In this document: in pieces, positions 42,092 to 63,918 of the stretch
Numbering within the stretch: position 1 is the first letter of the stretch
How the letters are laid out: the number at the start of each line of letters is the position of its first letter
The notes under the pieces: model-generated
Seen by the model: only the letters and a program-made list of their open reading frames with translations
What the model was told of the DNA's origin: nothing
Databases searched by the model: none
Made by a program: the position numbers and the translations under genes
Source of the DNA: Thermoproteota archaeon
GTDB lineage: Archaea; Korarchaeota; Korarchaeia; Korarchaeales; Korarchaeaceae
Direction: 5' to 3'
Assembly: GCA_027491915.1 (NCBI GenBank)
Contig: JAOZGC010000002.1
Span: 544,001-608,000, forward strand
Length of the DNA: 64,000 nucleotides

Positions 42092-42113
42092 ACTTAACCA
42101 TTAAGTTAACCAT
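42092..42113. promoter_or_regulatory. AT-rich inverted repeat ACTTAA-CCA-TTAAGT with a direct repeat of TTAACCAT
   Basis: Seen about 20-40 nt upstream of the 42073 start; probable promoter/operator. Confidence 0.45.
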
Positions 42114-43602: not shown

Positions 43603-43631
43603 ACCGGTATGCTTATGTACTGGTATATACC
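43601..43631. promoter_or_regulatory. Operator-like palindromes between divergent genes
   Basis: ATACCGGTAT (43601-10), TACTGGTA (43618-25) and GGTATATACC (43622-31) in an AT-rich island. Confidence 0.55.
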
Positions 43632-43641
43632 CATATCGGTC

Positions 43642-46129: not shown

Positions 46130-46513
46130 ATGAGGGAGGAGGCCAGGCGACTGTGGCGGCAGGCCCTGGAGGACCTGGAGACGGCCAAGGTCTTGTTGAA
46201 CTCCGGCAGGTACTACGCCGCGGCCTTCTTCTCGCATCAGGCCGCCAAGAAATCTTTGAAGGCCGTCCACGTGGAGCTTAGGCGGGAGATCCCACCCAGG
46301 ACCCACAACCTGGTGGAGCTGGGTAGGGTCCTCGAGGTGGGAGACCTGATGGAGGATCTGATGGAGCTCAACCCGGAATACACGGTCTCCAGGTATCCGG
46401 ACGCCGCCAACGGCGTCCCGGCGGAGATGTACAGCGAGTCCATCGCCCGCAGGCAGGTGGAGAGGGCCGAGAGGGTGGTGAGGAGGTGCGGGGAGATCCT
46501 AAAGGCGTCTTGA
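46130..46513 (+). CDS. HEPN domain protein
   Basis: YYAAAFFSHQAAKKSLKA, RTHNL, YTVSRYPDA; TTTATAA box upstream. Confidence 0.9.
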   Translation: MREEARRLWRQALEDLETAKVLLNSGRYYAAAFFSHQAAKKSLKAVHVELRREIPPRTHNLVELGRVLEVGDLMEDLMELNPEYTVSRYPDAANGVPAEMYSESIARRQVERAERVVRRCGEILKAS

Positions 46514-46854
46514 GCAGGCTGGCCTCGTCCCTCAGATCTTGGGATCCCTCCGTCCGCCTGATACTATTCGGCTCCCGGGCCCGCGGGGACGAACTGGTGG
46601 ACTCGGACTACGACCTGATCGTGATCTCTGAGAGGTTCTCCGGGATTCCCTTCCCACGGAGGGCGGTCGAGGTATGGAGGGTTCTCCTGAGGTCCGGAGT
46701 CCTCGGCGACTTCGAGTTCCTCTGCTACACCCCGAGGGAGTTCGAGAGGAAGGCCCGCGAGATAGGGGTGGTCTCCCTGGCCGCCCGGGAGGGGGTGAAA
46801 GTCGACCCCCGCCGGCGGGGGGGGACGGGGATCGATCGGGCTGCCGGGCCCTAG
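46510..46854 (+). CDS. MNT antitoxin
   Basis: LFGSRARGD...SDYDLIVIS..F, CYTPREF; TTGA overlap with the HEPN stop. Confidence 0.9.
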   Translation: MSRLASSLRSWDPSVRLILFGSRARGDELVDSDYDLIVISERFSGIPFPRRAVEVWRVLLRSGVLGDFEFLCYTPREFERKAREIGVVSLAAREGVKVDPRRRGGTGIDRAAGP

Positions 46855-47524: not shown

Positions 47525-47646
47525 CCCGGGGGGACGCGCCGCCCGCTTTTATAGCCGCCCGGGCCCGGCGGCCGGGCCGCCGGCCGCCCCGATCCCGACT
47601 CCGGGGACCGGGCGCCCTTAATATGGGGGCCCTCCCCTGGACCCGG

Positions 47647-49521
47647 ATGGTCGGGGAGGAGGGACCAGGGGGGATATCGGAGAACAGGAGACTGGTGCTC
47701 GCGCTGCTCCTGGCGGTCCTGTCCGTCGGGGCGGCCACCGGGGTGCAGAGGACCGTCCTGTCTCTCTACTCCAGCGGCCTGGTGGGGGGTCCAGGCGGCC
47801 CGCTCGCCTACCTCCTGATATACCTCCCCATACTGAGCTTCGGCCTCCTGAAGGGGACCGTGGACCTGGCCGGGGGATGGCTCTCGGACAGGCTCGGCAG
47901 GAGGTGGGCGGCCGTCCTGGGGAGCGGGATCTACCTGGCCGGCGCCGCCGCCGTGGTCTGCGGCCGGGGTCTGGAGACGCTGGTGGCGGCCAACCTGCTG
48001 ATAGGGGGAGGGGAGGGCATGCTCATGGCGGCGGCCATGATAGCCCTCTCGGACGTCGGGACCCCGGGAGAGCAGGCCTTCGGCTTTGGCCTGATGGAGG
48101 GGGCCGTCTACGGGGGGTACGGGGTGGGCTCCGTCCTGGCAGGGTACGTAGCCAGCCTCAGGGGGTACCACGACGCCTTCTGGATCTCCCTCCTGGCGGC
48201 CGCCGCGGCGTTCGCCGCCGCGGCCGGGGCGTCGGACACCAGGTCGGCCGCCTGGAGGAAAAGGGCCGGATCGGGGCCGCGATCGGGATCCGGGGCCGAC
48301 ATGACCACCTTGGAGGTCTACAGGAGGTGCCTGAGGAGTTGGACGCTGAGGGCCGCCTACTTCCTGGGTCACCTGGCCAAGTTCTCCGACGCCCTGATCT
48401 GGGGAGCCTTCCCGCTGTACCTGGCCTCCCTGGGATTCGGGGAGGATACGATAGGGTGGGTTCAGGGGGCGGCAACCTTCTCCTGGGCGGCATCCATGCC
48501 CCTGGCCGGCAGGCTCTCGGACAGGCTGGGCAGGAAGGTCCCGGCGGCCGCCGGCCTGGGACTCAAGGCCCTGGGGATAGCCGGGGTCTACTACGGCGCC
48601 GGCGCCCCGGCGGTCATCGCGTCCGCCGCAGCCATAGGGGTAGGGGTCGGCATGTACTACCCGATAATGCCGGCCATCTCCGCCGACGTGGTCCCCTCCG
48701 GGGTGAGGGGCAGGGCCTTGGGCCTGTACAGGTCCCTGAGGGACTACGGGTACTTCACCGGCGCCCTGGCCCTGGCCCTGATGTCCTCCCTCGGCATGGG
48801 GTACGCCTTCCTCCTGACCGTGGCCCTGCTGGGGGCGGGCGTGCTCGTGGTTGCCCTGGGTGTCAAGGAGACCAGACCCTACTGGCCCGCCTACGAGCAG
48901 GCCGTCAGGCACGCCGAGACGGTCTTCTCCTCCGTCAGGACCCTGAGGAAGATGGTTGAGGCCCACGCCTCCGGGGACAGGGGGGAGGTGGAGAGGCTGG
49001 CCCCCTCTGTCAAGGAGCTGGAGGCCGAGGCCGACGGGATAAGGCTGGTGGTCGACAGGATACTGTGGCTCAGCCCCTTGAAGGGGCAGGATAAGGCCGA
49101 TTTCGCCAGGCTCGTCGCAAGGATGGATAGGATAGCGGCCTACGCCCTCGGTTCGTCCCGGAGGCTCGTCCTCATAGATCCGGCACGCCTGTCGGACGGG
49201 ATCAGGGAGCTCCTAGTGAAATTCGTCAGGGGGCTGGAGCTGGAGGTGGAGACCCTGGTCGGGTCCCTCAGGACCATGGGGGTCGACCTGGAGGGCTCCA
49301 TCGACTCGATAGAGAGGGTTGGGGAGATAGAGAGCGAGCTGGACTCCGTCCACGGGGAGGCCATGGAGGAGCTGGACGAGCACGGGGAGAGGCTGGACGT
49401 CCTTACCCTCCTCAACCTCAGGGACCTGATAGAGTTCATGGAGTACGCCGCCGACGTGGCTGAGGACGCCGCCGACGTCATGAGGGTCATAGTGTTCAAG
49501 CACAGCGCCTGGTCGGCCTAG
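47647..49521 (+). CDS. MFS transporter fused to a C-terminal DUF47/PhoU-like domain
   Basis: Two motif-A copies (GWLSDRLGRR, GRLSDRLGRK), about 12 TM; then ELEAEADGI...MDRIA...ESELD...EYAADVAEDAAD. Confidence 0.85.
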   Translation: MVGEEGPGGISENRRLVLALLLAVLSVGAATGVQRTVLSLYSSGLVGGPGGPLAYLLIYLPILSFGLLKGTVDLAGGWLSDRLGRRWAAVLGSGIYLAGAAAVVCGRGLETLVAANLLIGGGEGMLMAAAMIALSDVGTPGEQAFGFGLMEGAVYGGYGVGSVLAGYVASLRGYHDAFWISLLAAAAAFAAAAGASDTRSAAWRKRAGSGPRSGSGADMTTLEVYRRCLRSWTLRAAYFLGHLAKFSDALIWGAFPLYLASLGFGEDTIGWVQGAATFSWAASMPLAGRLSDRLGRKVPAAAGLGLKALGIAGVYYGAGAPAVIASAAAIGVGVGMYYPIMPAISADVVPSGVRGRALGLYRSLRDYGYFTGALALALMSSLGMGYAFLLTVALLGAGVLVVALGVKETRPYWPAYEQAVRHAETVFSSVRTLRKMVEAHASGDRGEVERLAPSVKELEAEADGIRLVVDRILWLSPLKGQDKADFARLVARMDRIAAYALGSSRRLVLIDPARLSDGIRELLVKFVRGLELEVETLVGSLRTMGVDLEGSIDSIERVGEIESELDSVHGEAMEELDEHGERLDVLTLLNLRDLIEFMEYAADVAEDAADVMRVIVFKHSAWSA

Positions 49522-50704
49522 ACTCGGGGGGCCGCCGACGTCCGGCGGTCCCGGACGGTCCGGGCGCCTCACCGGCGGGCGGCAGTGAGACCACCCTCCT
49601 CCTGCCGACCCTCTCGGAGACCACCAGGCCGAACCTCTCCAGGAGGTCGACGTTCCTCTTGACGGTCTCCGTCGACAGACCCAGCCTGGAGGCCAGCCCC
49701 CTGATGGAGGCCGGACCCTCCCCGGCCAGGGACTCGAGTATCCTCCTCCTGGTCCTGCTCCTGACGGCAGCCCTTAGCAGGGCCCCCTCCCTCCCCCCGG
49801 GGGGGAAGAACATCTTCTCCCCGACCAGGTCCTCCGAGGATAGGAGGCCCTCTCTCTCCAGCACGGAGAGGTGGTAGGCGAGGGTGGACCTGGGCAGCCC
49901 GAGCCTGGAGCTCAGCTCCCCCAGGCTGGCAGCCCCGGCGTCCCTTATCAGGGCGAAGAGCACGGCGCGCGTGGGGTGGGCCAGGGGGCCTGCCTCCGGT
50001 TCCCGCCCAGCCTCCTCCCCCGGTCCCAGCTCCCCCATCCCGAGGCCGGCGAGCAGCGCGGCGGCCCCTCCCAGCCCCAGCCCGGCCGCCAGGGGGGCCA
50101 TCCCCCCTCCGACCGGGGAGACCGAGTCCAGCACCCCCCTGACCAGGCAGGCCGCGCCGGCCGGATCCTCCGAGAGCCACTCGGTCAGGTTGGCGGCGAT
50201 CAGAACGATCTCAGGCCTTCCGCCCACCGACAGTACCGCGGGAAACCCGTTCTCGTAGACGTAGAGCAGCCTGACCCCGTCCGCCGCCACCTCGTACCTC
50301 TCCACCCCAGCGGGGACCGGCACCTCCATCAGCCTGCCCGGGACCTCCCCCCACGGGATGGCTGTCCCCGGGGCCCGATAGACCCCGAGGACCTCTACGT
50401 GGGATCCGCTCGGGATCAGAACCGTTCCGACCTCGGCCAGGACCATCCTCGCCCCCTCCGGGATTCCGCTCAGGCCGGAGAAGGTGACGACCAGGTCTCC
50501 GCCGGGAGATGCGGTCCAGACCACGCCGCAGGTCCCGTTCGAATATCTCAGGGCCTCCAAGATGCCCCGAGGCGGCGACGCCAGGAGAGCCCTCCTGGTC
50601 CCCCCGCCCGGCGGCCAGGACCGACCGACGGCCGCCGATAAGGCCGCCGCGGCGAGGGCGGTCAGCACCGCGCAGGCGGCGATCCTCCTCCCCCTCCCCC
50701 CCAT
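49496..50704 (-). CDS. Membrane-anchored regulator: external domain, TM, two tandem wHTH domains (COG3398-like)
   Basis: N-terminal hydrophobic helix; TM near aa 200; LAHPTR...STLAYHLSVLEREGL and TRRRILE...ETVKRNVDLLERFGLV. Confidence 0.8.
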   Translation of the reverse strand: MGGRGRRIAACAVLTALAAAALSAAVGRSWPPGGGTRRALLASPPRGILEALRYSNGTCGVVWTASPGGDLVVTFSGLSGIPEGARMVLAEVGTVLIPSGSHVEVLGVYRAPGTAIPWGEVPGRLMEVPVPAGVERYEVAADGVRLLYVYENGFPAVLSVGGRPEIVLIAANLTEWLSEDPAGAACLVRGVLDSVSPVGGGMAPLAAGLGLGGAAALLAGLGMGELGPGEEAGREPEAGPLAHPTRAVLFALIRDAGAASLGELSSRLGLPRSTLAYHLSVLEREGLLSSEDLVGEKMFFPPGGREGALLRAAVRSRTRRRILESLAGEGPASIRGLASRLGLSTETVKRNVDLLERFGLVVSERVGRRRVVSLPPAGEAPGPSGTAGRRRPPESRPTRRCA

Positions 50705-50762: not shown

Positions 50763-51224
50763 TCACTCCCAGGTGATCCCCCGTATGACCACCAGACCCT
50801 CCCTCTCAAGCCTGAGCAGGGCGGCCGTTATCTCGAACACGCTAACCCCCCACTCCTCTGCCAGCTGGGCGGGGGTGAAGACCGCGTGCTCCGCCAGGTA
50901 GCCCAGGAGCCTGAGCTCCAGCTCCCCCAGGTCGCCCGCCTCGGCGGCCGCGGAGGTGACCCCAACCATCAGCCTGTACCTGGTGGGCACCGACGGGAGG
51001 ACCTCGGAGTGGTAGCTCGACAGGCCGGCGAAGACGCCGGCGAGCGCGGCCAGAGCGGCGGAGACGACCACCTGGACCTCGCTCAGCCAGGACGAGAGGA
51101 CCGCCACAACCATGAGGGACAGGGCCGAGACGGCCAGCCCCATCTCCAGCGCCGCGGCCGTCCTCCTCCTCTTCCTCCTCCTGAGGGCCTCGTCCAACCC
51201 CAGGATTCCCCCTCTCCTCATCAA
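50763..51224 (-). CDS. Two-TM membrane protein with a C-terminal wHTH
   Basis: Two hydrophobic helices; LELRLLGYL...TPAQLAEEWGVSVFEITAALLRLEREGLV. Confidence 0.75.
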   Translation of the reverse strand: MMRRGGILGLDEALRRRKRRRTAAALEMGLAVSALSLMVVAVLSSWLSEVQVVVSAALAALAGVFAGLSSYHSEVLPSVPTRYRLMVGVTSAAAEAGDLGELELRLLGYLAEHAVFTPAQLAEEWGVSVFEITAALLRLEREGLVVIRGITWE

Positions 51225-51226
51225 GG

Positions 51227-54200
51227 CTATCGCCTCCCTCCTCCCGGGAGGAGGGGTATCAGGATCACCTCAAAACCCATGTCCGCGGCGAGGGCGGCCC
51301 CCCTGGCGTCCGACAGGGCCACCCCGCGGACCCCGACCTCTGCGGCGGCCAGCAGGCCGGCCGCCAACTCCAATCCCATGCCCGTCCCCCTCGCGAGCGC
51401 GAGGGCCTCCACGAACCTACCCTCGTCCAAGCCTATCACCTCGACCTCCCCCCCGACGAGGAGTCTCTCCACCATCGGAGCCACGGCCGGGTCTCCCATC
51501 GCCACGGACAGCGTGGCCTCGGACACGGCCGCCCTGAACCCCCCCGTGAGCTCCTCCAGGCCGCCGCCCGAGAGCGCGGCGAACCTCAGGGAGCCGTAGT
51601 CGAGGAGGGTCAGCCTGCCCCCCCTTCTCCTCCTTATGGCCAGCATCAGGAGGGCCGCGGCCGGCAGGGCGAGCGGACCCTCGAACGAGGCCGCCGCCAG
51701 GGAGGACCTGGGTATGGTGACGACGCTGGAGGCCCTCAACCCGTAGGGCGGCAGCTCGGCCACGTTGATCACGTCCCCGGTAAGCCCGGCCGATGCCCTG
51801 GCCCTGAAGGAGACCACCATGACCTCGCCCCCGCCCACGCGGGCCTCCACCCTGACGACCCCGCCGGAGGCCGAGGCCGCCCTGACGAGCGCCCCCTCCA
51901 CCGAGAGCGAGCCCGGCACGACCCTGACACCGCCCGGGAGATTGTCGACCAGGGTCACGTCCGCGGCCCCGTCGCTGCGGACCGTCACGACGTACGATAT
52001 GGCCCCGCCGCCGAGGTAGCTCCCCGCCTTGCTCAGGCTCACGTTGGGTGGCGGGGGGAGGACCCTCAAGGCGCAGTCGGCCGACAGGTTCCCCGCCGTC
52101 ACCGAGTTCACTACCTCCCCGCCCGCCCCCCCGACGACGACGGCCTGGAAGGAGGCCCTGAAGGCCTCTCCCGGGGAGAGCGGCCCCACCCTCCACCTGA
52201 GCGTCCCCGAGGAGTACTCAGCTTCCGGGGAGGCCGTCCCGGCCACGTACCTCAGGTCGGCCGGCAGCCTGTCCTCCACGACGACCTCCCCGGAGGGTCC
52301 GTCCCCGGAGTTCTCCAAGGAGATGGTGAAGGTGACCGCGCTCCCCAGCGCCACACCGCCGGCCGGGCAGGTCTTCCTCAGGGTGAGCCTCGGGGCTGCC
52401 GTGACGTTCGGCCCGCGCGCCGGCCCGGGGGGGTAACCGCCCACTATCCTCACGGCGGCCCTGGCCACCTCTTCCCCGCCGTAAACCACCGTGTTGTAGA
52501 CCACGTCCGTCCCCCTGGGCCTGGCCACCGCCTCGGCCTCGAACTCGACGTCCGCCGCCTCCCCCGGGTCGAGCGGCGGGAGGCTCCAGGTGAGGGAGCC
52601 CCCATCCCGGGCGGGCTCGGCCGGGACGCCGTCGACGGAACCCGACCCCCCGACGTACCTGAGCTCCGGCGGCAGCCTGTCGGTCAGGACGACGCCGGAG
52701 ACCCTGGTCTCCCCGACGTTCTCCACGACTATCCTGAACCCGACCCTATCCCCGACCCCTATAGTCCCGGGACGGGCCTCCTTCGTGAACCTGAGCTCCG
52801 GCGGCCGGGGCCTGACTCCCGGCCGGGGACAGGCCAGGTCCGGCTCCACGACCTCCGCCCCTACCAGCCCTCCTCCCCTCAGCGGGATCTGGGAGCCGGA
52901 AGGGTGGAATGTCACCGTGAAGTTGACCGAGGCGTAGTACCGCGGGAGGTCCGGGGCCGCCGGGTCAGGCCACCAGGATCCCACCCACTCCCCCCCGGGG
53001 GGGACCGGGGCGCCCGGGCTCTCGCACCGGACGAGCCTGGATCCCGCCCCCCCGGGGGGTCCCCCCTCCCAGACGCAGACCCCGTCCAGCTCGTAGTCCA
53101 GCCCGGAGGCCAGGTTCTCGAAGGAGGGCCTGACCAAGTACCCGGACTCGGTTCTGTTCTTCTCCACGCCCGCCGCGGCCGGCCCGACCGCCCTAAGGGA
53201 GGTCACCCTGCCCAGTATGGAGGCCCAGTCCCTCTCGTAGTAGAGGATGGCCGCCGGCAGCCGGGCGGACGCGGTCAGGGTGGCCCTCCCCCTCAGGGTC
53301 GCCGAGCAGGACTGCCCCGCCGAGACCGAACCGATCGTCCAGTTGAGGACCCCGCCGTCGATCGATACGGATCCGCAGCTGGCCGACGCCGACGTCGGCC
53401 TCAGCCAGCCCGGGATCTCCTTGGTGAGGCGGACCCCCCGGAGGTCGCGTGAGAAGTCCAGCCTTATCTCCACCCTGACCACCCCGGGGGACCCGCAGGC
53501 GGCGGAGTAGGACGTCGACTCTGAGGCGGACGCCGGGAAGTCCGCCAGCGACGGGTCCGCCTCGTACCTCCACCTCACCCTCCCCCCGGGCGGGAGCTGC
53601 GGGACGTGCAGCGGGGGGGCGGCGGTCGAGTTCGAGGGGATCGGGTAGTCCGGGTAGATCGAGTAGCCCGACGGGTCCAGGTCCACCCACACGTCGTAAA
53701 CCGGATCCGGGCTCGGGTTGGAGACCGTCAGGAGACCCCAGAGCCTCGACACCTCCGCGGTGCCGTTGGGATAGAGAGTGGCCTCGACGAACTCCCGGGC
53801 CGACAGGTTGATCCCGCCCGGCGGGTCCAGGCCAACCTCGAGCGCCTCCGACAGCTCGTAGTCGGAGGAGCCGCAGGCGGCCGACCCCATCGTGTACCTG
53901 ACCAGCGCGCTGTCGTCCGCCGATCCGGCCGGGCCCAGGTCCACCCTCCACCAGTAGACTCCCCCCGAGCTGCCGGCGTGCGGGGGGTCCTCCCAGGTGA
54001 GGCCCATCCCGTCGGGGATCTCGTCGTAAACCAGGATCCCGACGGCCGGATTATAGGCCCAGTTCGTCACGTTCAGGGTCACGTTGTACTCGCAGGGGGA
54101 CGCCGGCTCGATGGACTTCCTCACCGTCAGGTTGAGGGAGAGCCTCCCCACCCTGACGTCGGGGCCGAACTCCGAGGTCCCGTTGCCCGGGAGGCTGGCC

Positions 54201-57200
54201 GTGGCCGTGACCAGGTCCCCCTCCTCCACCGTCACCGCCGCCCCGGACAGGTTTATCCACCCGGAGAAGTTGCCCGCGGGATCGACCGTCAGGTTCCCCA
54301 GGTAGATCCACCCCTCGCCGTAGAGCTCGCCCGTCCCCGGGTAGTAGTTGCCGGCCAGGTCGTCCCCGCCGACCGACGAGTTAACCAGGAAGACCTCCAC
54401 CCTGGCGCCCGCGAAGTTCGGGGATCCCGCGCCGGCCCCCTCCGAGTTCAGGAACCCCCTCACGTAGAGCAGGTCCCCCTCCAGGCCGGCCACCGATATG
54501 ACCGGGTAGTCCACCCCCCAGTCGGCCGCCGAGGAGTTGAGGAGCCCGTCGTTCTCGGTGACCCCGTCCCCGTCCCCGTCCGAGTTCGGGTCGGCCGACC
54601 CGGCGTCCAGGTCTATCCCGAGGCCCGAGTTGTTGTAGAAAGAGTTCTCCGATATCGTCACGTTCGCCGCGGGGGACTTCACCGTCAGACCGGAGCCGGC
54701 GTTGCCGGCGATCACGTTCCCGCGGACGATCACCCCACCCGAGAAGTTGGGGAAGAAGACGACGCCCACGTCCTCCGGGCTCGGGGCGCCGCCGGAGAAG
54801 CCGTTGTGCCTGACCGTGTTCTCCTCCAGGGAGCCGCCCACCCTGCCCAGCACCTCCATCCCCGCGCCCACCTGGTCCTCGACCAGGTTCCACCTGACCG
54901 TCAGGTTCCTTATCTCCCCGCCGTAGGCTATGGCCAGGATCCCGTCGTAGGTGCTGGTCTGCCCGCTCGTCGGGGCGCCCACGACGTTCTCCTCTATCGT
55001 CACGTCCGAGGCCAGCTGCGCGGACGAGGTCTCCACCCTTATCCCCGAGTTGTCGACCCTGACGTAGTTGTGTCTCACCATCGCCCCGCTGGTGGACCCC
55101 AGGATCCCTATACCGTAGTACGCCCCGGTCGGGGTCGGATCCGAGCCGTTGGCCATCATCCCCACCAGGTTGTCCTGGACCGCCAGGTTGTCCGCCCCGA
55201 CCCCCCTCACGGTCCCCCCGTAGAGGGCCAGCCGGGATATCCCGCAGCGCGCGCCGGTCACCTCCAGGGCGACCGAGTTCCACCCGTCCACCTCGACCTC
55301 CGGCCTGTCGAACGGCCGCACGTGGTGGCCCCAGACGCCCACGTCCCACCCTGAACCCATCCAACCCGGGTTCGAGTCCCTGACCGTTCCGTTCGGCCAG
55401 AACACCGTCCCGTTCAGGGAGGTGTCGTCGTCCGATATCTGTGGGAGCGGTCCCATCGTGGAATTCAGGGCGATGTTCCACCACGCGCCCGAGGCGTCTC
55501 CGGAGTTGGGAGGAGTCGCCATGACGAACCAGCTCCTGTCCGCCCCCGATATGGCATTTGCGTTTTGGAGGAACTGCCTCAGGGTTCCCTGGGCTGTCCT
55601 CGGCGCCGACGGATCCTGATCGGAGTCCGCCGGGTTGACCACCAGGTCGAAGCTGAACCCGAAGTCCAGGCTCTCCCCCCGGTACTTCCCGGCTTCCACC
55701 CGGGAGAAGTGCTCGCACGGGCTTCCGGGCCTCCAGAGCATTAGGTCGTCCACGTAGTACTCCCATCCGCCGTGGACGACCACCCGGTCGAACTCCCCGT
55801 AGGCGGAGTCCGTCGCCCTCACCTCGGCCAGCACGTGGCCTGACTGGTCGAGGACCTGAAAGGCCAGGGTGTGGTTCTCGAAGAAGATCATCCTCCAGAA
55901 GTACCAGGAGTCCTCCGGGGGATCCCAGCTGACCGTGGCCGATATCCTGGTCGGGGAGCCGTCGGTCCTCCTGTCTATCCAGATCTTCCCGGTGTTGTGG
56001 TTCACGGCGAAGGTGTAGCCGTCGAAAGACCCGTTTTCGAGCCCTATCCTGTCTATCGGTCCTCCAGACCAACCGCTCGGCCTGTACACGTATCCCTGGA
56101 GTATGTAGCCCCAGCCCACCGTCTCCCCGAGGAGCTTATATCCGCCGTTGGGGTCGTTGTGCAGGGTCTTCTTCAGGCTGTACCTGCCCCCGTGGGCCTG
56201 CTCGGAGGATCGCACCACCACGCCGGAGAGGTAGTTGTTCCACCCTGACCAGACCTCGAAGTCGTCCCTGAAGGGGACGGTCAGGCTGCAGGCGTCGCTG
56301 ACGGTCGGATCGGCGCCCCCGAACTTCTCCTCCCCGGAGTGGGCCGTCCCGTTCCAGCCGACCTGATAGGTCTGCTCCGCCCAAGTCTCATCCCATGATC
56401 TGCCGGGGTTCAGCCCCCTGGGCGACGTGAGGCTCCTGGAATCCACGGCCACCAGGTAGGTGCGGTTCCCGGCCAGGAAGGAGTATCTCCCGGAGGCTGA
56501 CGTGGACGTCACGTCCACCAGCGCGTCCATGTAGGGGTCGAGCTCCCCGTCCCCGTCGTCCAGGAAGAGGCCGACCCTGGCCCCGCCTATGGGGGAGTCG
56601 GCGGGCCCGTACCCCGACGCGAGGGGCCAGGAGTCCTCGAACACGACGCCCGTCAGGTTGGCCCTGACCTCGAAGGGGGCCTCGCCGACGTTGAAGAAGT
56701 CCGTGTAGTTCACCCCGGTCGGCCTCCCGGGGATGTGTATCAGGCCGTCGTACCTCGGCCCCAGGAGAGAGGAGGTGGAGTCGTTGGCCAGCACCACGAC
56801 CCTCCACACCCCGAGGGGGGCCCCGGGCGGTATGTCGTAGACGTCCGAGTTCGTGAACTCCCCGTCGTTCGCGGCCGGGTCCCCGTGGGTTCCGTCGTCG
56901 TACAGGGGGGCCGAGGCCACGAGGTTACCGGACGGGTCGTAGACCCTGCAGACCACCGACTCCGGGGCGGCGTCCACGGCCGCCCTGACCTCCAGGGGGC
57001 CGTAGGTCTCCACCCCCCGGGGCGCGGTCACGTTGACCCCGAACCCCTCCACCATATCCGCCTCGACCACCGCCGTCGAGTTCGCCCAGGTCAGGTTGTC
57101 CACGTAGGCCCACGTCTTGTAGAGGTCGTCGGAGAAGGTGTGGACGGTGAAGTTGATCCTGACCAGCTCCCCCTCGTAGGCGGAGAGGTCGTACGAGGCG

Positions 57201-60200
57201 GACAGCCACCCGGAATCGTTGAACCTCCCGTAGCCGTTCCCGGGATTCGGGTTGTACGGCGCCAGGATGGTGTCCAGCAGGCTGTTGTCCGTGGCGTTCC
57301 TCAGGGTGACGGTCAGGTAGTCGTAGTTCTCCGAGTCCCACGACTCCACCCTGTACCAGAAGTGGATCTCGCCCCCCCCTTTGGGGACCATGATGTCGTA
57401 GGAGGCCCACGTGTCCTCGCCCGCCGAGGTGTAATCCTCGGTCGCGTTCACCCTGTACCCCACCACCACCGAGTACCCCCCGAACAGGGGCAGCCCGTCG
57501 TCCGCGACCTGAGACGGGGTCCCGTAGGAAGAGTTGGCCAACACCAGGTAGGGGCCGGGCGGGCTCGCCTCCACGATGGACTCTATCCCGGCGGGGCTCT
57601 CGCCCCAGGACCACCCGGTCAGGGTGCCCGAGTCGGCCCCGCTGTTCAGGGTGTTCAGCTGGGACTTGGCCCCGTTCTCGAGCACGTCGAAGTAGACGTA
57701 GAAGGTGGATGTGGACGGGAGATCTTTCGGCAGGAGGAACTTCACCAGCCCGGAGCTTGGGCCCGTCGGGATGTACTCCTGTCGGGGGACCAGCGCCCCG
57801 CTCGGGTCCACCACCCTGACCGAGTTGTTGTCGAAGGTCCCCGAAACGTTGAGCCTGGACAGAAGGGACCCAAAGTCGACCGAGGCCAGGACGGTGTGCC
57901 ACGCCGTCAGGGCGGGGACCTTCAGCGGCACCCTGTAGTGCCAGTCCTCCCCCCGATCCGGTCCGTCGGGATCCCACCACGGGGGGACCCCGTACAGGAC
58001 GTAGTAGTACTGGTTGGGATCGTCGTAGAACACGACCTCGTCTCCCGCCTGATACCACTCGTCCACCCGGCGCGTCGAGTTGTTCCCCACCGCCAGGACC
58101 CCGCGGCATTCGGCCCCGGGGGGGAGGCGGACCTCGACCCTGCGCCAGGCTGCGGCCGACTTCCCCCCAACCTCAACCAGCAGCCTCCCGGCGCCGGCCG
58201 ATCTCACCCTCGGCGCCGGGGCCGGCTCCGGGAGGGGGGAGGAGGGCCTCTCGATGAAGACGGTGCCGCTCGAGTTGATGAGGACCTCCCCCCGCCCGAT
58301 CTCGATTTCCCTCCCGCCCGAGATGAGGCGGCCGCCGACCCACTCCCCCCCCAGGCGGAGGACGCCGGGCTCCTCCACCTCCAGCACCTTGACCGACCAG
58401 AGCGACTCCGTCCCCTCGGCCTCCAGCCCCGCGATCTCGTTTACCCTCGCCTCCCCCCAGCCCCCGCGGGTTGGGGCGGCCCCCGGGGTTCCGACCCGGG
58501 CCGGACCGGGCGCCGCCAGGACGAGTTCCACCCTACCGTCGGCCGACCCGTCCGGATCGGAGGGGCCCCCGTCCTCCACGGCGATGGAGACCGTATCCCC
58601 CGCCGGCCCGACGGCGGCCCTGACGGCCGGGAGGAGGGTGCGGGGGTCCAGCGCCGCGAGGCCGGCGGGCGCCGACAGGTTTGCGGAGAAGCCCGGGTCC
58701 CCCTCCAGGGAGACCCTCACCAGGGTCCACCCCTCCCACCTCCCCTCGCCGGGGGACAACCCCCCAGGCGAGAGGCACGCCCCGGCCGCCTCGACCGTCA
58801 GGTTCCCCACAGAAACCTCTGATCCGCACCCGGCCGTCACGTGCACCTCCACCACCTTGGAGGCCGTCAGGTTCCCGCGGGCCGCGCGGATCTCCAGCTC
58901 GTAGTCCCCGGGGTCTAGCCTCCCGAGGTCTATCCGGACCGACCCCTCCGCCTTGACGGAGCCCTCCCTCACCGGCCCGCCGCCCCCCCGGAGAGTGAAG
59001 TTCAGGGTGGCGTTCGCCGGCCGCCCGTCCTCCAGTACCCCTATCTCGACCTCGACCTCGCCGGCCGGCAGCCAGAGCTCCCCCCCGACCTGGAGGCTCA
59101 GGCCCCCCTCCGGGGCGCCGCCGGGGATCGAGACGGGGACCTCCTCCTCGGCCCCGAGCCCCATCCACTCGGCGGAAGCGACGACCACGTAGTCGCCCGG
59201 GGGGAGGTCGGGCAGCCTCACCAGGGCCTCTCCCCCCTCGGTCTCCGACGAGAGGGACAGGTTCTCCCCCCCGACCCCGGGGACAGTCACGGTCACGTTG
59301 GCCCCGTCCAGCGGGCCGGAGGCGACGCCGGCGACCGATATCCTCAGGGCGCCGTCGACCGCCGTCGCGTTGAGCGAGATCACGTCCACGAGGAATTCCG
59401 CCGACGCCTCCTCCTCCACCCCGGAGACGTTGGCCCTAACCTCCACCGAGTACAGGCCCAGCTCCACGGACGAGTTCAGAGGCACCTCGCACGCCCACCC
59501 TCGCCCCATGGGTCTAGGCCTCAGGGTTCTCTCCAATCCCCCCGGCAGCCTGAGAGTCACCTCGGGCGCCCCCGAAATCTCGCCCGACGATCCCACCGTG
59601 ATGCTGACGGTGTCCCCCGGAGAGTAGGCCCCCCTATCGGTCTCAACCCACACCAGGCCCGACGGGGCGGTGAGGCTAACCGAGACCTCCCCGTATACCC
59701 CGGCGGTGCTCGAGATTCGGATCGAGACGCTGTACTCCCCGGGAGACCAGGGCTCGAAGTTCAGGTGGCACGACCCCCCGGAAACCTCCCCCCGGACGGA
59801 CGAGTTCCTCCCGTCCGGCCCTCTTATCAGGGCTGTGGCGTTCCCGTCGACCGGGGACCCGTTCACCCCGTCCGAGACCGTCAGGTTCACCAGGCAGACT
59901 CCCGCCCGGCACCCAGCCCTTGCCCTCACGTCCAGGACGTCCACCTCGAACGCGGCCGACGCCTCCAATCCGCCGGCCTCGGCCGTCGCCCGGTACTCCC
60001 CCAGCGGGGTGGGGGTGCCCGGGAGGAAGATCCCGCGCCACCAGGTCTCGTTGATGGCCTCCACCTCCACCCGGAGGGTGGTCCCGGTCGGATCTGTCAC
60101 CTCCAGGGACGGCTCCCCCCTCCCGTTCCAGGCCACCCAGATGGTCACCCCCTCCCCCGGTCGGTGGACCCCCCCTCCCTCCACCCGGAGCCAGAGCGCC

Positions 60201-60841
60201 TGGGGGAGGTCCGCCGAGGCCGCCCCCTCCAGGGGCCCCGACTCGGCCCTGACCTCCACGGCCGACGATCCCGGGGGTATGGAGAACTCTGCCTTTCCCT
60301 CAGAGGCAGCGGCGATCTCCAGTCCGGCCGGGAGGACCACCAGGGTCAGGTTGGCCGGGATCTCCCGGCCGGAGACAGCCGAGGTCGTCCTGATCCTGAT
60401 CGTGAGGTTCTCGGCGTAGGGCGAGGGATCCACATCTACCTCGACCGCGTCGAGCGTGAGCTCGGTCGAGGCCAGGACGCCCCCCCCGGGGGACCTGACC
60501 TCCAGCCGGTAGGGGCCGGGGTCGAGCCCGGAGGTGTCAATCTCGAACTCCACCCCGGAAGGGGTCCGCCTCACCCCGGAGACCGGGGACCCCGGGAAAG
60601 CCTCGATCCTTCCACCGGGGTCGGCCCCGACCAGGGGCTCCGTCCACCCGGTCGGGGCGATCAGGAGCACCTCCCACGGTCCGGGGACTGTGCACTCCAC
60701 CCGCACCTCCTCCCCGAGGCCGTGCAGCCCCCCGCCCTCGACCCTTACGCCGGGCCCGCCGGGCAGCCCGGAGGCCCGGCCCGAGGCGCCAACCGCAAGG
60801 AAGATCAGGGCGAGCGGGATCACGGGGGAGGTCCTGGACAC
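51227..60841 (-). CDS. Giant (3204 aa) surface adhesin: MG2/Ig-like repeats, lectin-like and Ca-binding modules, beta-helix, pilin-like module, three DUF11 domains, TM, cytoplasmic PIN-like domain
   Basis: Signal peptide; TDRGAYSPGDTV; WWD...WHYRVP; LYDDGTHGD..ANDGEFT; GTLRQFLQNAN; PbH1-like repeats with NSGLGIDL...TSEFG; K-x-N-x-D.LP DUF11 repeats; TM-RRRR; about 125 aa tail. Confidence 0.85.
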   Translation of the reverse strand: MSRTSPVIPLALIFLAVGASGRASGLPGGPGVRVEGGGLHGLGEEVRVECTVPGPWEVLLIAPTGWTEPLVGADPGGRIEAFPGSPVSGVRRTPSGVEFEIDTSGLDPGPYRLEVRSPGGGVLASTELTLDAVEVDVDPSPYAENLTIRIRTTSAVSGREIPANLTLVVLPAGLEIAAASEGKAEFSIPPGSSAVEVRAESGPLEGAASADLPQALWLRVEGGGVHRPGEGVTIWVAWNGRGEPSLEVTDPTGTTLRVEVEAINETWWRGIFLPGTPTPLGEYRATAEAGGLEASAAFEVDVLDVRARAGCRAGVCLVNLTVSDGVNGSPVDGNATALIRGPDGRNSSVRGEVSGGSCHLNFEPWSPGEYSVSIRISSTAGVYGEVSVSLTAPSGLVWVETDRGAYSPGDTVSITVGSSGEISGAPEVTLRLPGGLERTLRPRPMGRGWACEVPLNSSVELGLYSVEVRANVSGVEEEASAEFLVDVISLNATAVDGALRISVAGVASGPLDGANVTVTVPGVGGENLSLSSETEGGEALVRLPDLPPGDYVVVASAEWMGLGAEEEVPVSIPGGAPEGGLSLQVGGELWLPAGEVEVEIGVLEDGRPANATLNFTLRGGGGPVREGSVKAEGSVRIDLGRLDPGDYELEIRAARGNLTASKVVEVHVTAGCGSEVSVGNLTVEAAGACLSPGGLSPGEGRWEGWTLVRVSLEGDPGFSANLSAPAGLAALDPRTLLPAVRAAVGPAGDTVSIAVEDGGPSDPDGSADGRVELVLAAPGPARVGTPGAAPTRGGWGEARVNEIAGLEAEGTESLWSVKVLEVEEPGVLRLGGEWVGGRLISGGREIEIGRGEVLINSSGTVFIERPSSPLPEPAPAPRVRSAGAGRLLVEVGGKSAAAWRRVEVRLPPGAECRGVLAVGNNSTRRVDEWYQAGDEVVFYDDPNQYYYVLYGVPPWWDPDGPDRGEDWHYRVPLKVPALTAWHTVLASVDFGSLLSRLNVSGTFDNNSVRVVDPSGALVPRQEYIPTGPSSGLVKFLLPKDLPSTSTFYVYFDVLENGAKSQLNTLNSGADSGTLTGWSWGESPAGIESIVEASPPGPYLVLANSSYGTPSQVADDGLPLFGGYSVVVGYRVNATEDYTSAGEDTWASYDIMVPKGGGEIHFWYRVESWDSENYDYLTVTLRNATDNSLLDTILAPYNPNPGNGYGRFNDSGWLSASYDLSAYEGELVRINFTVHTFSDDLYKTWAYVDNLTWANSTAVVEADMVEGFGVNVTAPRGVETYGPLEVRAAVDAAPESVVCRVYDPSGNLVASAPLYDDGTHGDPAANDGEFTNSDVYDIPPGAPLGVWRVVVLANDSTSSLLGPRYDGLIHIPGRPTGVNYTDFFNVGEAPFEVRANLTGVVFEDSWPLASGYGPADSPIGGARVGLFLDDGDGELDPYMDALVDVTSTSASGRYSFLAGNRTYLVAVDSRSLTSPRGLNPGRSWDETWAEQTYQVGWNGTAHSGEEKFGGADPTVSDACSLTVPFRDDFEVWSGWNNYLSGVVVRSSEQAHGGRYSLKKTLHNDPNGGYKLLGETVGWGYILQGYVYRPSGWSGGPIDRIGLENGSFDGYTFAVNHNTGKIWIDRRTDGSPTRISATVSWDPPEDSWYFWRMIFFENHTLAFQVLDQSGHVLAEVRATDSAYGEFDRVVVHGGWEYYVDDLMLWRPGSPCEHFSRVEAGKYRGESLDFGFSFDLVVNPADSDQDPSAPRTAQGTLRQFLQNANAISGADRSWFVMATPPNSGDASGAWWNIALNSTMGPLPQISDDDTSLNGTVFWPNGTVRDSNPGWMGSGWDVGVWGHHVRPFDRPEVEVDGWNSVALEVTGARCGISRLALYGGTVRGVGADNLAVQDNLVGMMANGSDPTPTGAYYGIGILGSTSGAMVRHNYVRVDNSGIRVETSSAQLASDVTIEENVVGAPTSGQTSTYDGILAIAYGGEIRNLTVRWNLVEDQVGAGMEVLGRVGGSLEENTVRHNGFSGGAPSPEDVGVVFFPNFSGGVIVRGNVIAGNAGSGLTVKSPAANVTISENSFYNNSGLGIDLDAGSADPNSDGDGDGVTENDGLLNSSAADWGVDYPVISVAGLEGDLLYVRGFLNSEGAGAGSPNFAGARVEVFLVNSSVGGDDLAGNYYPGTGELYGEGWIYLGNLTVDPAGNFSGWINLSGAAVTVEEGDLVTATASLPGNGTSEFGPDVRVGRLSLNLTVRKSIEPASPCEYNVTLNVTNWAYNPAVGILVYDEIPDGMGLTWEDPPHAGSSGGVYWWRVDLGPAGSADDSALVRYTMGSAACGSSDYELSEALEVGLDPPGGINLSAREFVEATLYPNGTAEVSRLWGLLTVSNPSPDPVYDVWVDLDPSGYSIYPDYPIPSNSTAAPPLHVPQLPPGGRVRWRYEADPSLADFPASASESTSYSAACGSPGVVRVEIRLDFSRDLRGVRLTKEIPGWLRPTSASASCGSVSIDGGVLNWTIGSVSAGQSCSATLRGRATLTASARLPAAILYYERDWASILGRVTSLRAVGPAAAGVEKNRTESGYLVRPSFENLASGLDYELDGVCVWEGGPPGGAGSRLVRCESPGAPVPPGGEWVGSWWPDPAAPDLPRYYASVNFTVTFHPSGSQIPLRGGGLVGAEVVEPDLACPRPGVRPRPPELRFTKEARPGTIGVGDRVGFRIVVENVGETRVSGVVLTDRLPPELRYVGGSGSVDGVPAEPARDGGSLTWSLPPLDPGEAADVEFEAEAVARPRGTDVVYNTVVYGGEEVARAAVRIVGGYPPGPARGPNVTAAPRLTLRKTCPAGGVALGSAVTFTISLENSGDGPSGEVVVEDRLPADLRYVAGTASPEAEYSSGTLRWRVGPLSPGEAFRASFQAVVVGGAGGEVVNSVTAGNLSADCALRVLPPPPNVSLSKAGSYLGGGAISYVVTVRSDGAADVTLVDNLPGGVRVVPGSLSVEGALVRAASASGGVVRVEARVGGGEVMVVSFRARASAGLTGDVINVAELPPYGLRASSVVTIPRSSLAAASFEGPLALPAAALLMLAIRRRRGGRLTLLDYGSLRFAALSGGGLEELTGGFRAAVSEATLSVAMGDPAVAPMVERLLVGGEVEVIGLDEGRFVEALALARGTGMGLELAAGLLAAAEVGVRGVALSDARGAALAADMGFEVILIPLLPGGGRR

Positions 60842-60847
60842 CGGGGC

Positions 60848-61642
60848 TCACCCAACCCCCCGGGAGGGGCCGCCGCGACCGGTCCTAGACCTGAGGATGG
60901 TCGCGATCCCCGCCGCCGCGACCGCCGCGGCCGCGGATCCCCAGAGCGCGGCGTAACCGGGCACCGGAAGCCTCGGCAGCGGGAGCCTGCTGGTCTCCAC
61001 CCGGACGTCCAGGGTCCGCCCCGGCCCCAGGCCGGAGAGGGGCCAGCCGTCCCCCTCGGGTGGGGGATCGGCGTAGGTTATGACCTCGCCCTCGGGTGGG
61101 GTGATCAGGAGGCGACCCCCCTCCACCTCGGAGGACAGGGGGCCCAGGGTCAGCCGCGACTCCTCGAACAGCACCCCCCTGGTCGAGACGCCCCCCACCT
61201 CGAACCGGATCTCGAACCGCTCGCTCTCCCCGGGCCTGAGGGGCTGCCACATGGAGCACCTGATGATCAGTGTGTCCCCCTCCCTCATGGCCACCACCTC
61301 GAGCTCGGCGCCCCTGGTTGGGTCCCTCCCCTCCAGTCCCTCCACCGAGAGGTTCCCTCCGCCCCTGGGGGCCAGCCTAAGGATCACATATCCGGGGACC
61401 ACCGGCACCTCCCCGTCGTTCCTCAGGACTCCGGCCACCCTGAACCCGGCCGAGCCCGAGTCGCTCAGGCTGACGTCAACGTCCAGCCTCTCGAAGACTA
61501 TCGGGTTCTCGGCCTGGGCCGCCGCGCCGCGGACCCCGGGGGACGCGAGGGCCAGGGCGATCGCGAGGATGAGAAAGAGACCGGGCGGCGGGATCGGTCC
61601 GACCCGGATCCCCCGCCCGAGCGGGCGCGTATGGACCCTCAC
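60848..61642 (-). CDS. Secreted beta-sandwich protein with a C-terminal TM anchor
   Basis: GTG overlaps the upstream stop (GTGA); signal peptide; LRNDGEVPVVPG, QPLRPGE, LPLPRLP followed by TM. Confidence 0.75.
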   Translation of the reverse strand: MRVHTRPLGRGIRVGPIPPPGLFLILAIALALASPGVRGAAAQAENPIVFERLDVDVSLSDSGSAGFRVAGVLRNDGEVPVVPGYVILRLAPRGGGNLSVEGLEGRDPTRGAELEVVAMREGDTLIIRCSMWQPLRPGESERFEIRFEVGGVSTRGVLFEESRLTLGPLSSEVEGGRLLITPPEGEVITYADPPPEGDGWPLSGLGPGRTLDVRVETSRLPLPRLPVPGYAALWGSAAAAVAAAGIATILRSRTGRGGPSRGVG

Positions 61643-63798
61643 CCTCGGCGCGACCTCCACCGCAGAAGGAGCGCCTCCAGCGCGGCCGCCGCCAGGACCA
61701 CCGCCGCCACCAGCGGCTCCGGCGTGGACGCCCCCAGCGCCACGCCGGCGCTCGGGGTGATCACGGCCGAGGCGTCGAGGGTGTTCCTGGGGTCGACGCC
61801 GACCACGTAGACGTCGGACACGTTGTAGTCTCCCGACCCCTGGAGGCAGTAGTGGACCACCACCGGGTTGTAGATCGGCATGTTGAGGTTGGGGTACAGG
61901 CCCTGGGCGGATATCACCACCTTTCCGCCCCCGGATATCCCGTCCTGGACCCAGGAGACCGTGAAGTTGGTCTCGCCCGGCTGGCCGTCGTAGACCGTGA
62001 AGGTGGACCCCTCCGCCCTGTCGGTCCCGTTGACGTTGACCGTTGAGTCGTCCACGGGGTACACGTGCAGGTGGACCGTCGTCCCGTTGGCCAGCACCAC
62101 CGGCTCGTCCCTGGCGTTCCCGCTCCCGGTGCCGGCGAACCAGTCGGAGAATCCCCTCTGGGGCGCCGGTATCGGGTAGCTCTTCCAGACGTACCCGGAG
62201 GAGTAGCCGGTCGGGTTGGTCTTCAGGCTGTAGTCCGGCGGGCTGCCGCCCGGATCGGCGTCCTGGGCCAGCATCGAGAGGGGCCTGAATATCATGTTCC
62301 CCTCGGTGGCCGCCGGGTTGGCGGCGAATCCGGCGGGCACGAGGTCGTAGAACTCCACGTAGGGGGTCGGCCACTCGCCCACGTTGTGGAGCTCCACCGT
62401 CACGCACACCACGTTGCTGGTGCCGTTCCCCCTGACCTCCTTCCTGGCCTTGACCAGGTATCCCCTGACTGCCCAGATCTTCTCCCTGACCACGTAGACC
62501 GAGTAACCGGACGAGTTCTCCCCGTTGATCGATCCAGTGTAGTTCCACCAGCCGTTGACCTCATCCCTCTGTATCCTGAACCTGAAGCTGGCCCACACCT
62601 TGGGCACCCCGGAGTAGGTGAAGTTATAGGGGGAGGAGGGGTGCCGGTAGGATGTGGAGGCCTCGCCCGGGCCCACCGAGGCCAGCGGGGAGCCGCTGGA
62701 GGTCTGGTTGGTCCCTGATATGAGCCCGGTCCCCGGATCCCTGCCGGTGGTGGCCCAGACGCTGGCCCTGACCACCTCGTAGTCGAAGGTCCCGCTCGTG
62801 TCGTAGAACACGGCGGCCTCGGTCCAGCTGTCAGCCTTCTTGGTCCCCTGCTCCTTCTGCGTCTCCAGATCAGCCCTGCCGACGGAGTACACGTAGCCGA
62901 CGTAGTTCCCGGTCAGGGTCCCCCCGTAGTGGAACTGGACGAAGATGGTGCCCATCCCTATCTTCTGGGTGCTCCCGCCCACCTCGGACAGGTCAGGCGT
63001 CCCCTGGATCTTGGCGTTCCTCAGGTGTACCGGGCTGCCCGCCGTCACGGTGAACCAGTTGTCCGGCCAGCTCCCATCCCCCGTCCAGTACAGCGACTTG
63101 CCGTCCGCCGAGAGCGACGTCCCCCCCGCGTCCGGGGTCCCGCCGTCCGTGAACACGGGGTTGTTGGCGGCGTTGGCCCACCCGTCGCCGGCCTTGTTGT
63201 CCGCCGGGAGGACCTTCCTGACCCTGACGCTGACCGAGGGCAGCGTGGTGTCGATGGTCAGATTGAGGCTTATCTGCTGGCTCTGCCCGTCCACTATCTT
63301 CTCCGGGTAGATGGACTCGCTGACCTCTATGGGGGGGCAGGCGGACATCCTCGACCCGTTGACCACGTACCGCAGGACCACCCTGTCCCCGGGGCGGAGC
63401 TCCGTTATGTGCACCCAGGTCATGGCGGCAGGGTCACCGTATCCGGCGGCCGGGTAGGTGTTGATCACCCAGTTGGGCGCCGACTCCTGGGTCACCGAGG
63501 CGTAGGAGGGGCTCTCCTCCACAGTCAGGGCGGTTATGTAGTAGCCAGAGGGCACCCCGCCCAGGTAGAGCGGCACCCACAGGTCGGACGCGACCTCCGG
63601 CGCGCCGTTCTTTATGGTCACGTTCCCGGTCACGTTCCACGGACCGCAGAGGGAGTGCACCCCGTCCGTCTCGACGGTCGCGTTGACGGACTCCGTCAGG
63701 TATATGCTCAGGGGGGCGTCCGGGTTTGCCGCGACCCTCAGGACGTAGGCCGAGGAGGAGAGGAGGAGGGACAGGACGGCGAATCCCAGGATTCGCAT
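61639..63798 (-). CDS. Pilin/S-layer-like surface glycoprotein with VGVDP and a PEP-TM-basic C-terminus
   Basis: Signal peptide, many NxT/S sequons, terminal CnaB/DUF11-like domain. From memory it resembles the uncharacterised M. jannaschii MJ1393/A. fulgidus AF2028 family (unverified). TTG at 63825 is an alternative start. Confidence 0.8.
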   Translation of the reverse strand: MRILGFAVLSLLLSSSAYVLRVAANPDAPLSIYLTESVNATVETDGVHSLCGPWNVTGNVTIKNGAPEVASDLWVPLYLGGVPSGYYITALTVEESPSYASVTQESAPNWVINTYPAAGYGDPAAMTWVHITELRPGDRVVLRYVVNGSRMSACPPIEVSESIYPEKIVDGQSQQISLNLTIDTTLPSVSVRVRKVLPADNKAGDGWANAANNPVFTDGGTPDAGGTSLSADGKSLYWTGDGSWPDNWFTVTAGSPVHLRNAKIQGTPDLSEVGGSTQKIGMGTIFVQFHYGGTLTGNYVGYVYSVGRADLETQKEQGTKKADSWTEAAVFYDTSGTFDYEVVRASVWATTGRDPGTGLISGTNQTSSGSPLASVGPGEASTSYRHPSSPYNFTYSGVPKVWASFRFRIQRDEVNGWWNYTGSINGENSSGYSVYVVREKIWAVRGYLVKARKEVRGNGTSNVVCVTVELHNVGEWPTPYVEFYDLVPAGFAANPAATEGNMIFRPLSMLAQDADPGGSPPDYSLKTNPTGYSSGYVWKSYPIPAPQRGFSDWFAGTGSGNARDEPVVLANGTTVHLHVYPVDDSTVNVNGTDRAEGSTFTVYDGQPGETNFTVSWVQDGISGGGKVVISAQGLYPNLNMPIYNPVVVHYCLQGSGDYNVSDVYVVGVDPRNTLDASAVITPSAGVALGASTPEPLVAAVVLAAAALEALLLRWRSRRG

Positions 63799-63918
63799 CC
63801 CTCGCAATCCTACCACCTTATTCAAGCTTTAGATTTGACTTTCTCGCCGATACGGCCACGGTCAAGCGAGTTTGAGATCCTAATAAACCCTGTAGCCGCG
63901 GATCCAAACGCCGGGACC

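Follow-up and report, generated by a model that had tools for sequence, protein, structure and literature searches.

The locus and the giant surface protein

We analyzed the C-terminal tail of a giant surface protein encoded in a 64,000-nucleotide stretch of DNA from a Thermoproteota archaeon of the family Korarchaeaceae (GenBank assembly GCA_027491915.1, contig JAOZGC010000002.1, positions 544,001 to 608,000 of the forward strand). This whole stretch is referred to as the window, and all coordinates are window positions. The window has a G+C content of about 70%, and long chance open reading frames (ORFs) are frequent on both strands. Despite the spurious ORFs around it, the minus-strand frame at 51227..60841 is a real gene. 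Pfam models recognize three DUF11 repeats (1.1e-36) and a right-handed Beta_helix/NosD region (2.2e-12) in the 3204-amino acid (aa) product, together with weaker matches to MG2 and CarboxypepD_reg. NCBIfam agrees with the DUF11 assignment (TIGR01451, 1.1e-29). The gene comprises the following features:

51227..60841, minus strand: giant surface protein gene, 3204 codons and a stop codon, recognized as an open frame with Pfam and NCBIfam matches
60767..60841, minus strand: signal-like N-terminal hydrophobic segment, about residues 1-25; residues 1-19 form the second most hydrophobic 19-residue window of the protein
51635..51691, minus strand: C-terminal membrane anchor helix, residues 3051-3069, the most hydrophobic 19-residue window of the protein
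51623..51634, minus strand: RRRR cluster, residues 3070-3073, directly after the helix, a positive-inside signal
51260..51613, minus strand: predicted PIN-fold core, tail residues 8-125 (protein residues 3077-3194), delimited by the AlphaFold2 model, structure searches and hhalign; key residues are D3081 (D12 in tail numbering), E3108 (E39), T3110 (T41), D3117 (D48), E3158 (E89) and D3178 (D109)
51227..51259, minus strand: unstructured last 10 residues and the stop codon, with a predicted local distance difference test (pLDDT) value below 50 at tail residues 132-135

The tail extends for 132 residues beyond the RRRR cluster. The signal-like N-terminus, the single helix near the C-terminus and the basic residues behind it indicate that the tail probably lies on the cytoplasmic side of a single membrane anchor. 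All 63 N-x-S/T sequons of the protein are located before the anchor helix and none after it. The helix is more clearly defined in homologues, where it occupies the equivalent place, and the basic cluster follows it in 27 of 27 aligned tails.

Fold of the tail

The initial annotation of this DNA had guessed a PIN fold in the last ~130 aa, quoting five short strings from this region, all of which are indeed present in the last 132 residues of the ORF. Sequence models alone are silent on the matter. Neither Pfam nor NCBIfam matched the tail at E ≤ 1, ten homologous tails gave chance-level matches only against Pfam, and phmmer of the tail against the sequences in the PDB returned two chance-level matches. 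A single-sequence AlphaFold2 model reached a pLDDT of 51, and its Foldseek matches had E values of 0.13 or worse, yet were mostly PIN proteins already. With an alignment of 27 homologous tails as input, AlphaFold2 produced a model with a pLDDT of 90.9 and a predicted template modeling score of 0.84. The order of the modeled elements (b1-a1-a2-b2-a3-a4-b3-a5-a6-b4-a7-b5) corresponds to the canonical three-layer alpha/beta/alpha topology of PIN domains.

Searches with this model against the PDB returned PIN proteins. Foldseek gave five hits at E ≤ 0.001, every one a chain of PAE2754, which is a PIN protein; further rows contain Nob1, VapC11, VapC15, AF0591, PAE0151 and other PIN entries with template modeling scores of 0.53 to 0.64. 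VIA-align placed SSO1118 (2mdt) at the top with Z 12.0 and a root-mean-square deviation of 2.6 over 106 residues, followed by 49 entries at Z 9.3 to 11.4; 111 of 999 chains scored at Z ≥ 8. In a Foldseek-independent structure search of 48,161 chains, 33 reached Z ≥ 8 and ranks 1 to 35 were all of PIN type (the ribosome and exosome chains among them we take to be PIN subunits, the rest are identified by their entry titles); HAD-like and other folds begin at Z 6.2. As a lead only, 28 of 30 named ESM Atlas hits belong to two family sets labelled PF01850 (PIN), with a first hit at 0.92. The 27-tail model together with the Foldseek and VIA-align results bears out the initial structural guess, and the prediction that the last 132 residues form a PIN-fold domain is secure.

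Conservation of the fusion

Relatives retrieved with the tail alone as query (E values of 2e-19 to 1e-4) come from further genomes of both the family and the phylum, and each lies at the end of an open frame of 1079-3475 aa without internal stops. With a profile built from 14 tails and searched against 43 genomes of the phylum, we could detect matches in 29 genomes. Of the 45 places listed, 42 lie within open frames of 411-3328 aa; of the other three, one is truncated to 181 aa at a contig end and two are free-standing canonical PIN genes, the products of which belong to PF01850. The host frames of the tail fall into two size classes of about 1260 aa (short class) or 2500-3500 aa (giant class). 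A hydrophobic helix and a basic cluster directly precede the tail in all 26 tails extracted from other genomes, and the ratio of nonsynonymous to synonymous substitution rates (dN/dS) ranges from 0.08 to 0.34 in 8 of 8 pairs tested.

Uninterrupted homologous frames, the shared context of membrane helix and basic cluster, and dN/dS values in this range establish that the fusion is genuine. As far as homologues can show, a lost stop codon or a chance frame is excluded. An artefactual origin, in which a missing stop codon, an error in the sequence or a fortuitous frame makes a separate small PIN gene look like part of the adhesin, has a negligible probability. Many long spurious ORFs do occur on both strands of this G+C-rich region (72%), but the frame is uninterrupted in independent genomes of five genera besides this organism's, the tails are under purifying selection, the fold is predicted with high confidence, and a reported read-through in genome G020, where a profile match crosses a TGA, turned out on inspection to be a true stop after which the next gene lies in the same frame. 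The initial annotation had described an adhesin linked across the membrane to a nuclease-like or RNA-binding module. This description stands in that the fusion is genuine, the anchor helix is single and the PIN-fold tail is predicted to be inside, and no stop codon after the membrane helix was seen in the homologues checked for one.

Occurrence beyond the phylum was covered by nine genomes of other phyla, 133 genomes of one other phylum and database searches. Against 1.84 billion representative sequences, phmmer returned five proteins at E ≤ 0.001, namely three giants matched at their C-termini and two proteins with 6-7 matched stretches. With the tail alone as query, a search for homologous proteins of similar length found none. 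Two database relatives, which NCBI names as Candidatus Korarchaeum, are annotated as "DUF11 domain-containing protein" and "hypothetical protein", and neither name mentions the tail.

Family placement and comparison with known systems

The Pfam model PF01850 does not match the tail at E ≤ 1, though the same model works in this organism's own genome. An hhalign comparison of the tails with eight PF01850 ORFs of this genome covered just the C-terminal half, with a probability of 75.6% (E 2.4e-5). The tail profile was also run on 133 genomes from a different archaeal phylum and matched 38 of them, always in open frames of 123-214 aa. The best match is a 158-aa protein with a PF11848 (DUF3368) domain at 1.8e-8. 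Comparison by hhalign of the 27-tail alignment with five DUF3368-type proteins from that phylum, one of which was scanned against Pfam (PF11848 1.8e-8), afforded a probability of 96.5% (E 7.8e-10) over 138 columns. These columns include the DUF3368 segment, which pairs with longer tails from genus g3.

Passages of Matelska et al. (PMC5499597) describe COG2405/DUF3368 as a VapC-group PIN-like family of "potential toxins" with 2-5 active-site residues, containing both predicted active and predicted inactive members; 2mdt is its structure and is marked as an example of a predicted inactive member. The same passages name UPF0175 as the exclusive helix-turn-helix (HTH) partner of this family, and a UPF0175-type partner family is described as COG2886 in an excerpt of Makarova et al. 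(PMC2701414). Among relatives of this archaeon, 11 of 13 free-standing PF11848 places have a PF03683 (UPF0175) match on the same strand no more than about 0.7 kb away. Free-standing COG2405/DUF3368 members are predicted toxins paired with small HTH antitoxins. Pfam model searches of the organism's own genome detected neither PF11848 nor PF03683.

Because the hhalign probability is 96.5% and the top-ranking structure, 2mdt, belongs to COG2405/DUF3368, we assign the tail, by profile and structure comparison, as a diverged COG2405-type PIN domain that has lost the DUF3368 segment in most lineages. The initial annotation recognized no family for this architecture; its PIN fold stands, and by hhalign the closest family can now be named as COG2405/DUF3368. 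PF11848 gave no hit at E ≤ 1 on this tail or on 10 other tails, and the present tail stops before the DUF3368 segment. Fragment P0012 carries a precomputed PF11848 label, but hmmscan did not confirm it at E ≤ 10 and the label was discarded.

The tails of genus g3 (L042, L043) measure 161-163 aa, and their C-terminal extension aligns with the DUF3368 segment of free-standing COG2405 proteins. On the basis of this alignment, they look like an intermediate between the free COG2405 family and the short tails. Ten Pfam PIN places, nine of them over the cut-off, occur in the organism's own genome of 1.12 Mb (contigs C2 and C4).

PIN domains are known as free toxins, as RNA-processing enzymes and as parts of soluble or polytopic proteins. 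COG2405/DUF3368 (SSO1118, 2mdt) is most similar to the tail as both the best structural match (Z 12.0) and the best profile match. Its known members stand free, measure about 155-185 aa and are preceded by a UPF0175 HTH gene, whereas the domain described here is the C-terminal tail of a 3204-aa protein, contains no DUF3368 segment, carries DY in place of the usual first-strand motif and matches no Pfam model. VapC proteins (PF01850) share the common fold (Z 10-11.4 to several VapC structures), the tail has acidic residues at or next to the four catalytic positions, and a DNA-binding-type protein is encoded adjacent to it. VapBC pairs, however, consist of two small adjacent genes with the DNA-binding antitoxin usually upstream and the toxin free in the cytoplasm, while here the PIN domain is fused to a surface protein and the neighbor is membrane-bound and encoded downstream.

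Nob1 (2lcq), the archaeal endonuclease that processes the 3'-end of 16S rRNA, matches at Z 11.3. It is the best hit of the tail profile among PDB sequences and the only one found that is itself a PIN domain, at a marginal E of 0.014. Nob1 is a soluble ribosome-maturation factor with a zinc ribbon, unlike the membrane-anchored tail. Structures of PIN.COG4956 (YacL-like PIN-TRAM proteins; 3ix7 and 3i8o) match at Z 9.6-9.8, and this is the only PIN group described with transmembrane helices in the passages of Matelska et al. (PMC5499597). The group has four N-terminal transmembrane helices followed by PIN and TRAM and no ectodomain; the present protein has one helix after a 3050-aa ectodomain and no TRAM by Pfam.

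Neighboring genes and a candidate partner

The giant gene is flanked by genes for predicted membrane proteins on the same strand:

50763..51224, minus strand: downstream gene, 153 aa, encoding a candidate partner for the tail, with a basic N-terminus, two transmembrane helices and a winged helix at the C-terminus
49496..50704, minus strand: next gene, 402 aa, with an N-terminal hydrophobic segment, a ~190-aa outer part, a transmembrane helix and two winged-helix domains
60848..61650, minus strand: upstream gene, ~260 aa (start uncertain), with a hydrophobic N-terminal segment, a C-terminal helix and a short basic tail; no Pfam family
61639..63825, minus strand: upstream gene, 728 aa, with a signal-like N-terminus, many N-x-S/T sites, a C-terminal hydrophobic helix and a short basic tail; no Pfam family

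Winged HTH matches of the 153-aa protein are weak and below cut-offs (MarR_2 7.3e-5, GntR 1.5e-4). A profile of this two-transmembrane winged-helix family matches the gene that immediately follows the tail at all 17 distinct loci of the giant class and at none of 15 short-class loci. Thirteen of the giant-class loci were used to build the profile; the four independent loci score 5e-31, 1e-30, 4e-6 and 3e-4. In the complete genus-g4 genome G011, the short-class gene is solitary between a topoisomerase gene and a convergent gene. The giant-class locus of the same genome has the order found here, with two upstream genes, the giant gene and the small membrane protein. An initial suggestion had linked the tail to the neighboring winged HTH proteins, and for the downstream gene this suggestion gains ground from the 17 giant loci and from a complex prediction that gives weak support.

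This prediction paired the tail and its anchor helix with the 153-aa protein (one pairing, three controls). The score was 0.41 (runs 0.41, 0.44 and 0.34), the best of the three controls scored 0.00, and the verdict was weak support. The mark is reached by 116 of 157 solved complexes and by 2 of 215 mismatches; at scores of 0.60 or below it is reached by 18 of the 157 and by both mismatches. Contact agreement across the runs was at least 44%, with a pLDDT of at least 64 for the partner; the output named no interface.

Within the two-transmembrane winged-helix family, G29, Y71, P77, L139 and G143 are invariant and a Y-x-S-E/N motif is conserved right after the second helix. At three loci (L010, L041, L044), the membrane winged-helix protein encoded downstream is extended at its N-terminus by a region of ~130 aa that belongs to no Pfam family (the G011 homologue has no Pfam hit). 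A kinship of the 153-aa family with UPF0175 was considered and rejected at the level of Pfam models, as PF03683 matches none of the two-transmembrane winged-helix genes.

The 402-aa protein is recognized by HTH_20 (1.5e-19) and HTH_24 (2.8e-17), and homologues in the equivalent position occur at genus-g2 loci only. PADLOC returned nothing for the tail or the 153-aa protein and generic winged-helix hits only for the 402-aa protein. The upstream gene at 60848..61650 lies within a 566-aa ORF that is protein-like in its C-terminal part only.

Farther from the giant gene, the window contains overlapping genes for a HEPN protein (2e-26) and a nucleotidyltransferase (1.5e-8) at 46130-46854 (plus strand), in the usual arrangement of HEPN-MNT toxin-antitoxin pairs. 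A 632-aa protein (47623-49521, plus strand) combines an MFS transporter (8e-35) with a C-terminal PhoU_div/DUF47 domain (3.2e-17) that resembles a phosphate regulator. At 42106-44088, a 651-aa plus-strand ORF that MarR_2 matches weakly (1.9e-6) covers nearly all of the frame for a radical SAM/SPASM protein (minus strand, 3.1e-30); one of these two frames is probably a chance frame of G+C-rich DNA. A 608-aa ORF at 44172-45998 (plus strand) gives a partial DNA methylase match (N6_N4_Mtase, 4.7e-10).

Active-site residues and truncated tails

Residues were counted over the 27 aligned tails in tail numbering. The first acidic residue, D12, is invariant (27/27), and T41 and D48 are kept in 25 of 27 tails. 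Of the 27 tails, 23 are acidic at position 39 or 40, 25 at 89 or 90 and 15 at 109. Twelve tails have all four acidic residues at or next to the canonical positions, including the present one (D12, E39, E89, D109). In PIN domains these positions follow b1, open a3, open a6 and follow b4. D12, E39 and D109 fall on canonical PIN columns; in both profile alignments the third column is position 90, and E89, the residue retained by most tails, stands one residue before it. The central acidic residues, which the initial annotation had called degenerate, are less so than it suggested: E39 aligns with the canonical Glu, and E89 is displaced by one residue. As for the pseudo-enzyme that the initial annotation also considered, the tails are divided, with the acidic set complete to within one residue of register in 12 of 27 and decayed or truncated in others.

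Other tails deviate further. The nearest relatives of the present tail (genus g2) have lost position 2 and/or 3. In the giants of genus g4, the tail breaks off behind helix a6, so that b4-a7-b5 is missing, but purifying selection still acts on it (dN/dS 0.13). Judging from the residues, catalysis is possible for the present tail but clearly not needed family-wide. The best-kept tails are those of the short class (about 1260 aa), in which acidic positions 1-3 are retained throughout.

Two truncated forms of the tail can be distinguished. The first, of about 95-103 aa, ends after helix a6 (genus-g4 giants L005-L008 and L038). The second, of about 104 aa, ends with FLPDLLLGR (among L010, L011, L040, L041 and L044).

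Possible functions of the tail

Our best reading, which we offer tentatively, is that a PIN module of toxin-antitoxin type was taken over by a surface protein to serve, on the cytoplasmic side, for docking or output. The COG2405/DUF3368-type PIN domain has become fused to DUF11/beta-helix surface proteins throughout the phylum. In the giant class, the tail would dock the co-encoded two-transmembrane winged-helix protein, by analogy with the way VapC-type PIN domains hold DNA-binding antitoxins, and a membrane-tethered regulator could in this way sense what state the surface protein is in or how much of it the membrane contains. Where the acidic set is full, as in this tail, the domain may also cleave RNA, and the docking model does not depend on it. 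Docking is the best single model because it accommodates the strict link between the giant class and the winged-helix gene, the toxin-antitoxin ancestry of the tail and the weak complex signal.

Several observations weigh against this model. The short class contains the best-kept tails and no winged-helix neighbor (0 of 15 loci), so docking of that partner cannot be the general function of the tail. The partner gene is located downstream of the PIN-coding part and not upstream as in usual toxin-antitoxin pairs, the partner is not UPF0175 by the Pfam model, and PF03683 is absent from the organism's own genome by the same type of search. The complex score falls in a range that the tool rates as more often wrong than right without a good prior, and the membrane helices in both chains may drive it. 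Finally, the invariance of the first Asp, together with the acidic residues retained around positions 2 and 3, suggests a metal site and would argue for catalysis over docking alone. Given that the short class has no partner and better-kept acidic residues, these findings suggest that giant and short classes may differ in function.

A rather unlikely alternative is that the tail is an active membrane-tethered Mg2+/Mn2+-dependent ribonuclease. Clustering of the ectodomain upon contact with a surface, a cell or a virus would switch the enzyme, so that PIN dimerization allows cutting of RNA near the membrane. Sensor-RNases such as IRE1 offer a comparison for such clustering-switched cleavage. The residue counts given above speak for this proposal: D12 is invariant, T41, D48 and the second and third acidic positions are kept in most tails, all four acidic positions are occupied in 12 of 27, and the short-class tails retain the first three positions in loci devoid of a partner gene. 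The losses in genus g2 speak against it, as do the genus-g4 giants, which remain under selection without b4-a7-b5. In addition, the third acidic residue is one off the canonical column, and the closest structure, 2mdt, is the predicted inactive example in the passages of Matelska et al. (PMC5499597).

We consider it improbable that the tail is a catalytically dead PIN-fold scaffold which merely oligomerizes copies of the protein on the inside or anchors them to some structure in the cytoplasm, independently of the winged-helix protein. PIN domains commonly dimerize, the C-terminal third and the fourth acidic residue of the tail are variable, truncated forms exist, and the short class has no partner gene, all of which would suit a scaffold. 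Such a role does not account for the 17 of 17 link between giant-class tails and the two-transmembrane winged-helix gene, nor for the conservation of acidic residues near the active-site positions.

We may speculate, with little confidence in the full scheme, that the giant protein, its PIN tail and the membrane winged-helix protein form an archaeal outside-in signaling device. If the surface protein made contact, were stretched or were lost, as might happen during attachment or virus binding, the PIN tails would pair differently. As a result, RNA would be cleaved at the membrane, or the winged-helix protein would be released to act on DNA. A toxin-antitoxin module would then serve as a trans-membrane sensor.

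Significance

A full-text literature search found no description of an architecture in which a giant DUF11/beta-helix ectodomain leads through one helix into a PIN-like tail, next to a gene for a two-transmembrane winged-helix protein; the supplementary tables of Matelska et al., which lay outside this search, could list such fusions. Fold and family, as assigned here by comparison, are already known, and it is the architecture as the cytoplasmic tail of a giant surface protein that we did not find described. Were the tail to bind the co-encoded membrane winged-helix protein or to cleave RNA, it would provide a rare handle on how archaea couple the cell surface to gene expression. The system would then represent a toxin-antitoxin module domesticated for envelope biology, and a function could be attributed to a conserved, unannotated part of the largest proteins in a little-studied phylum.

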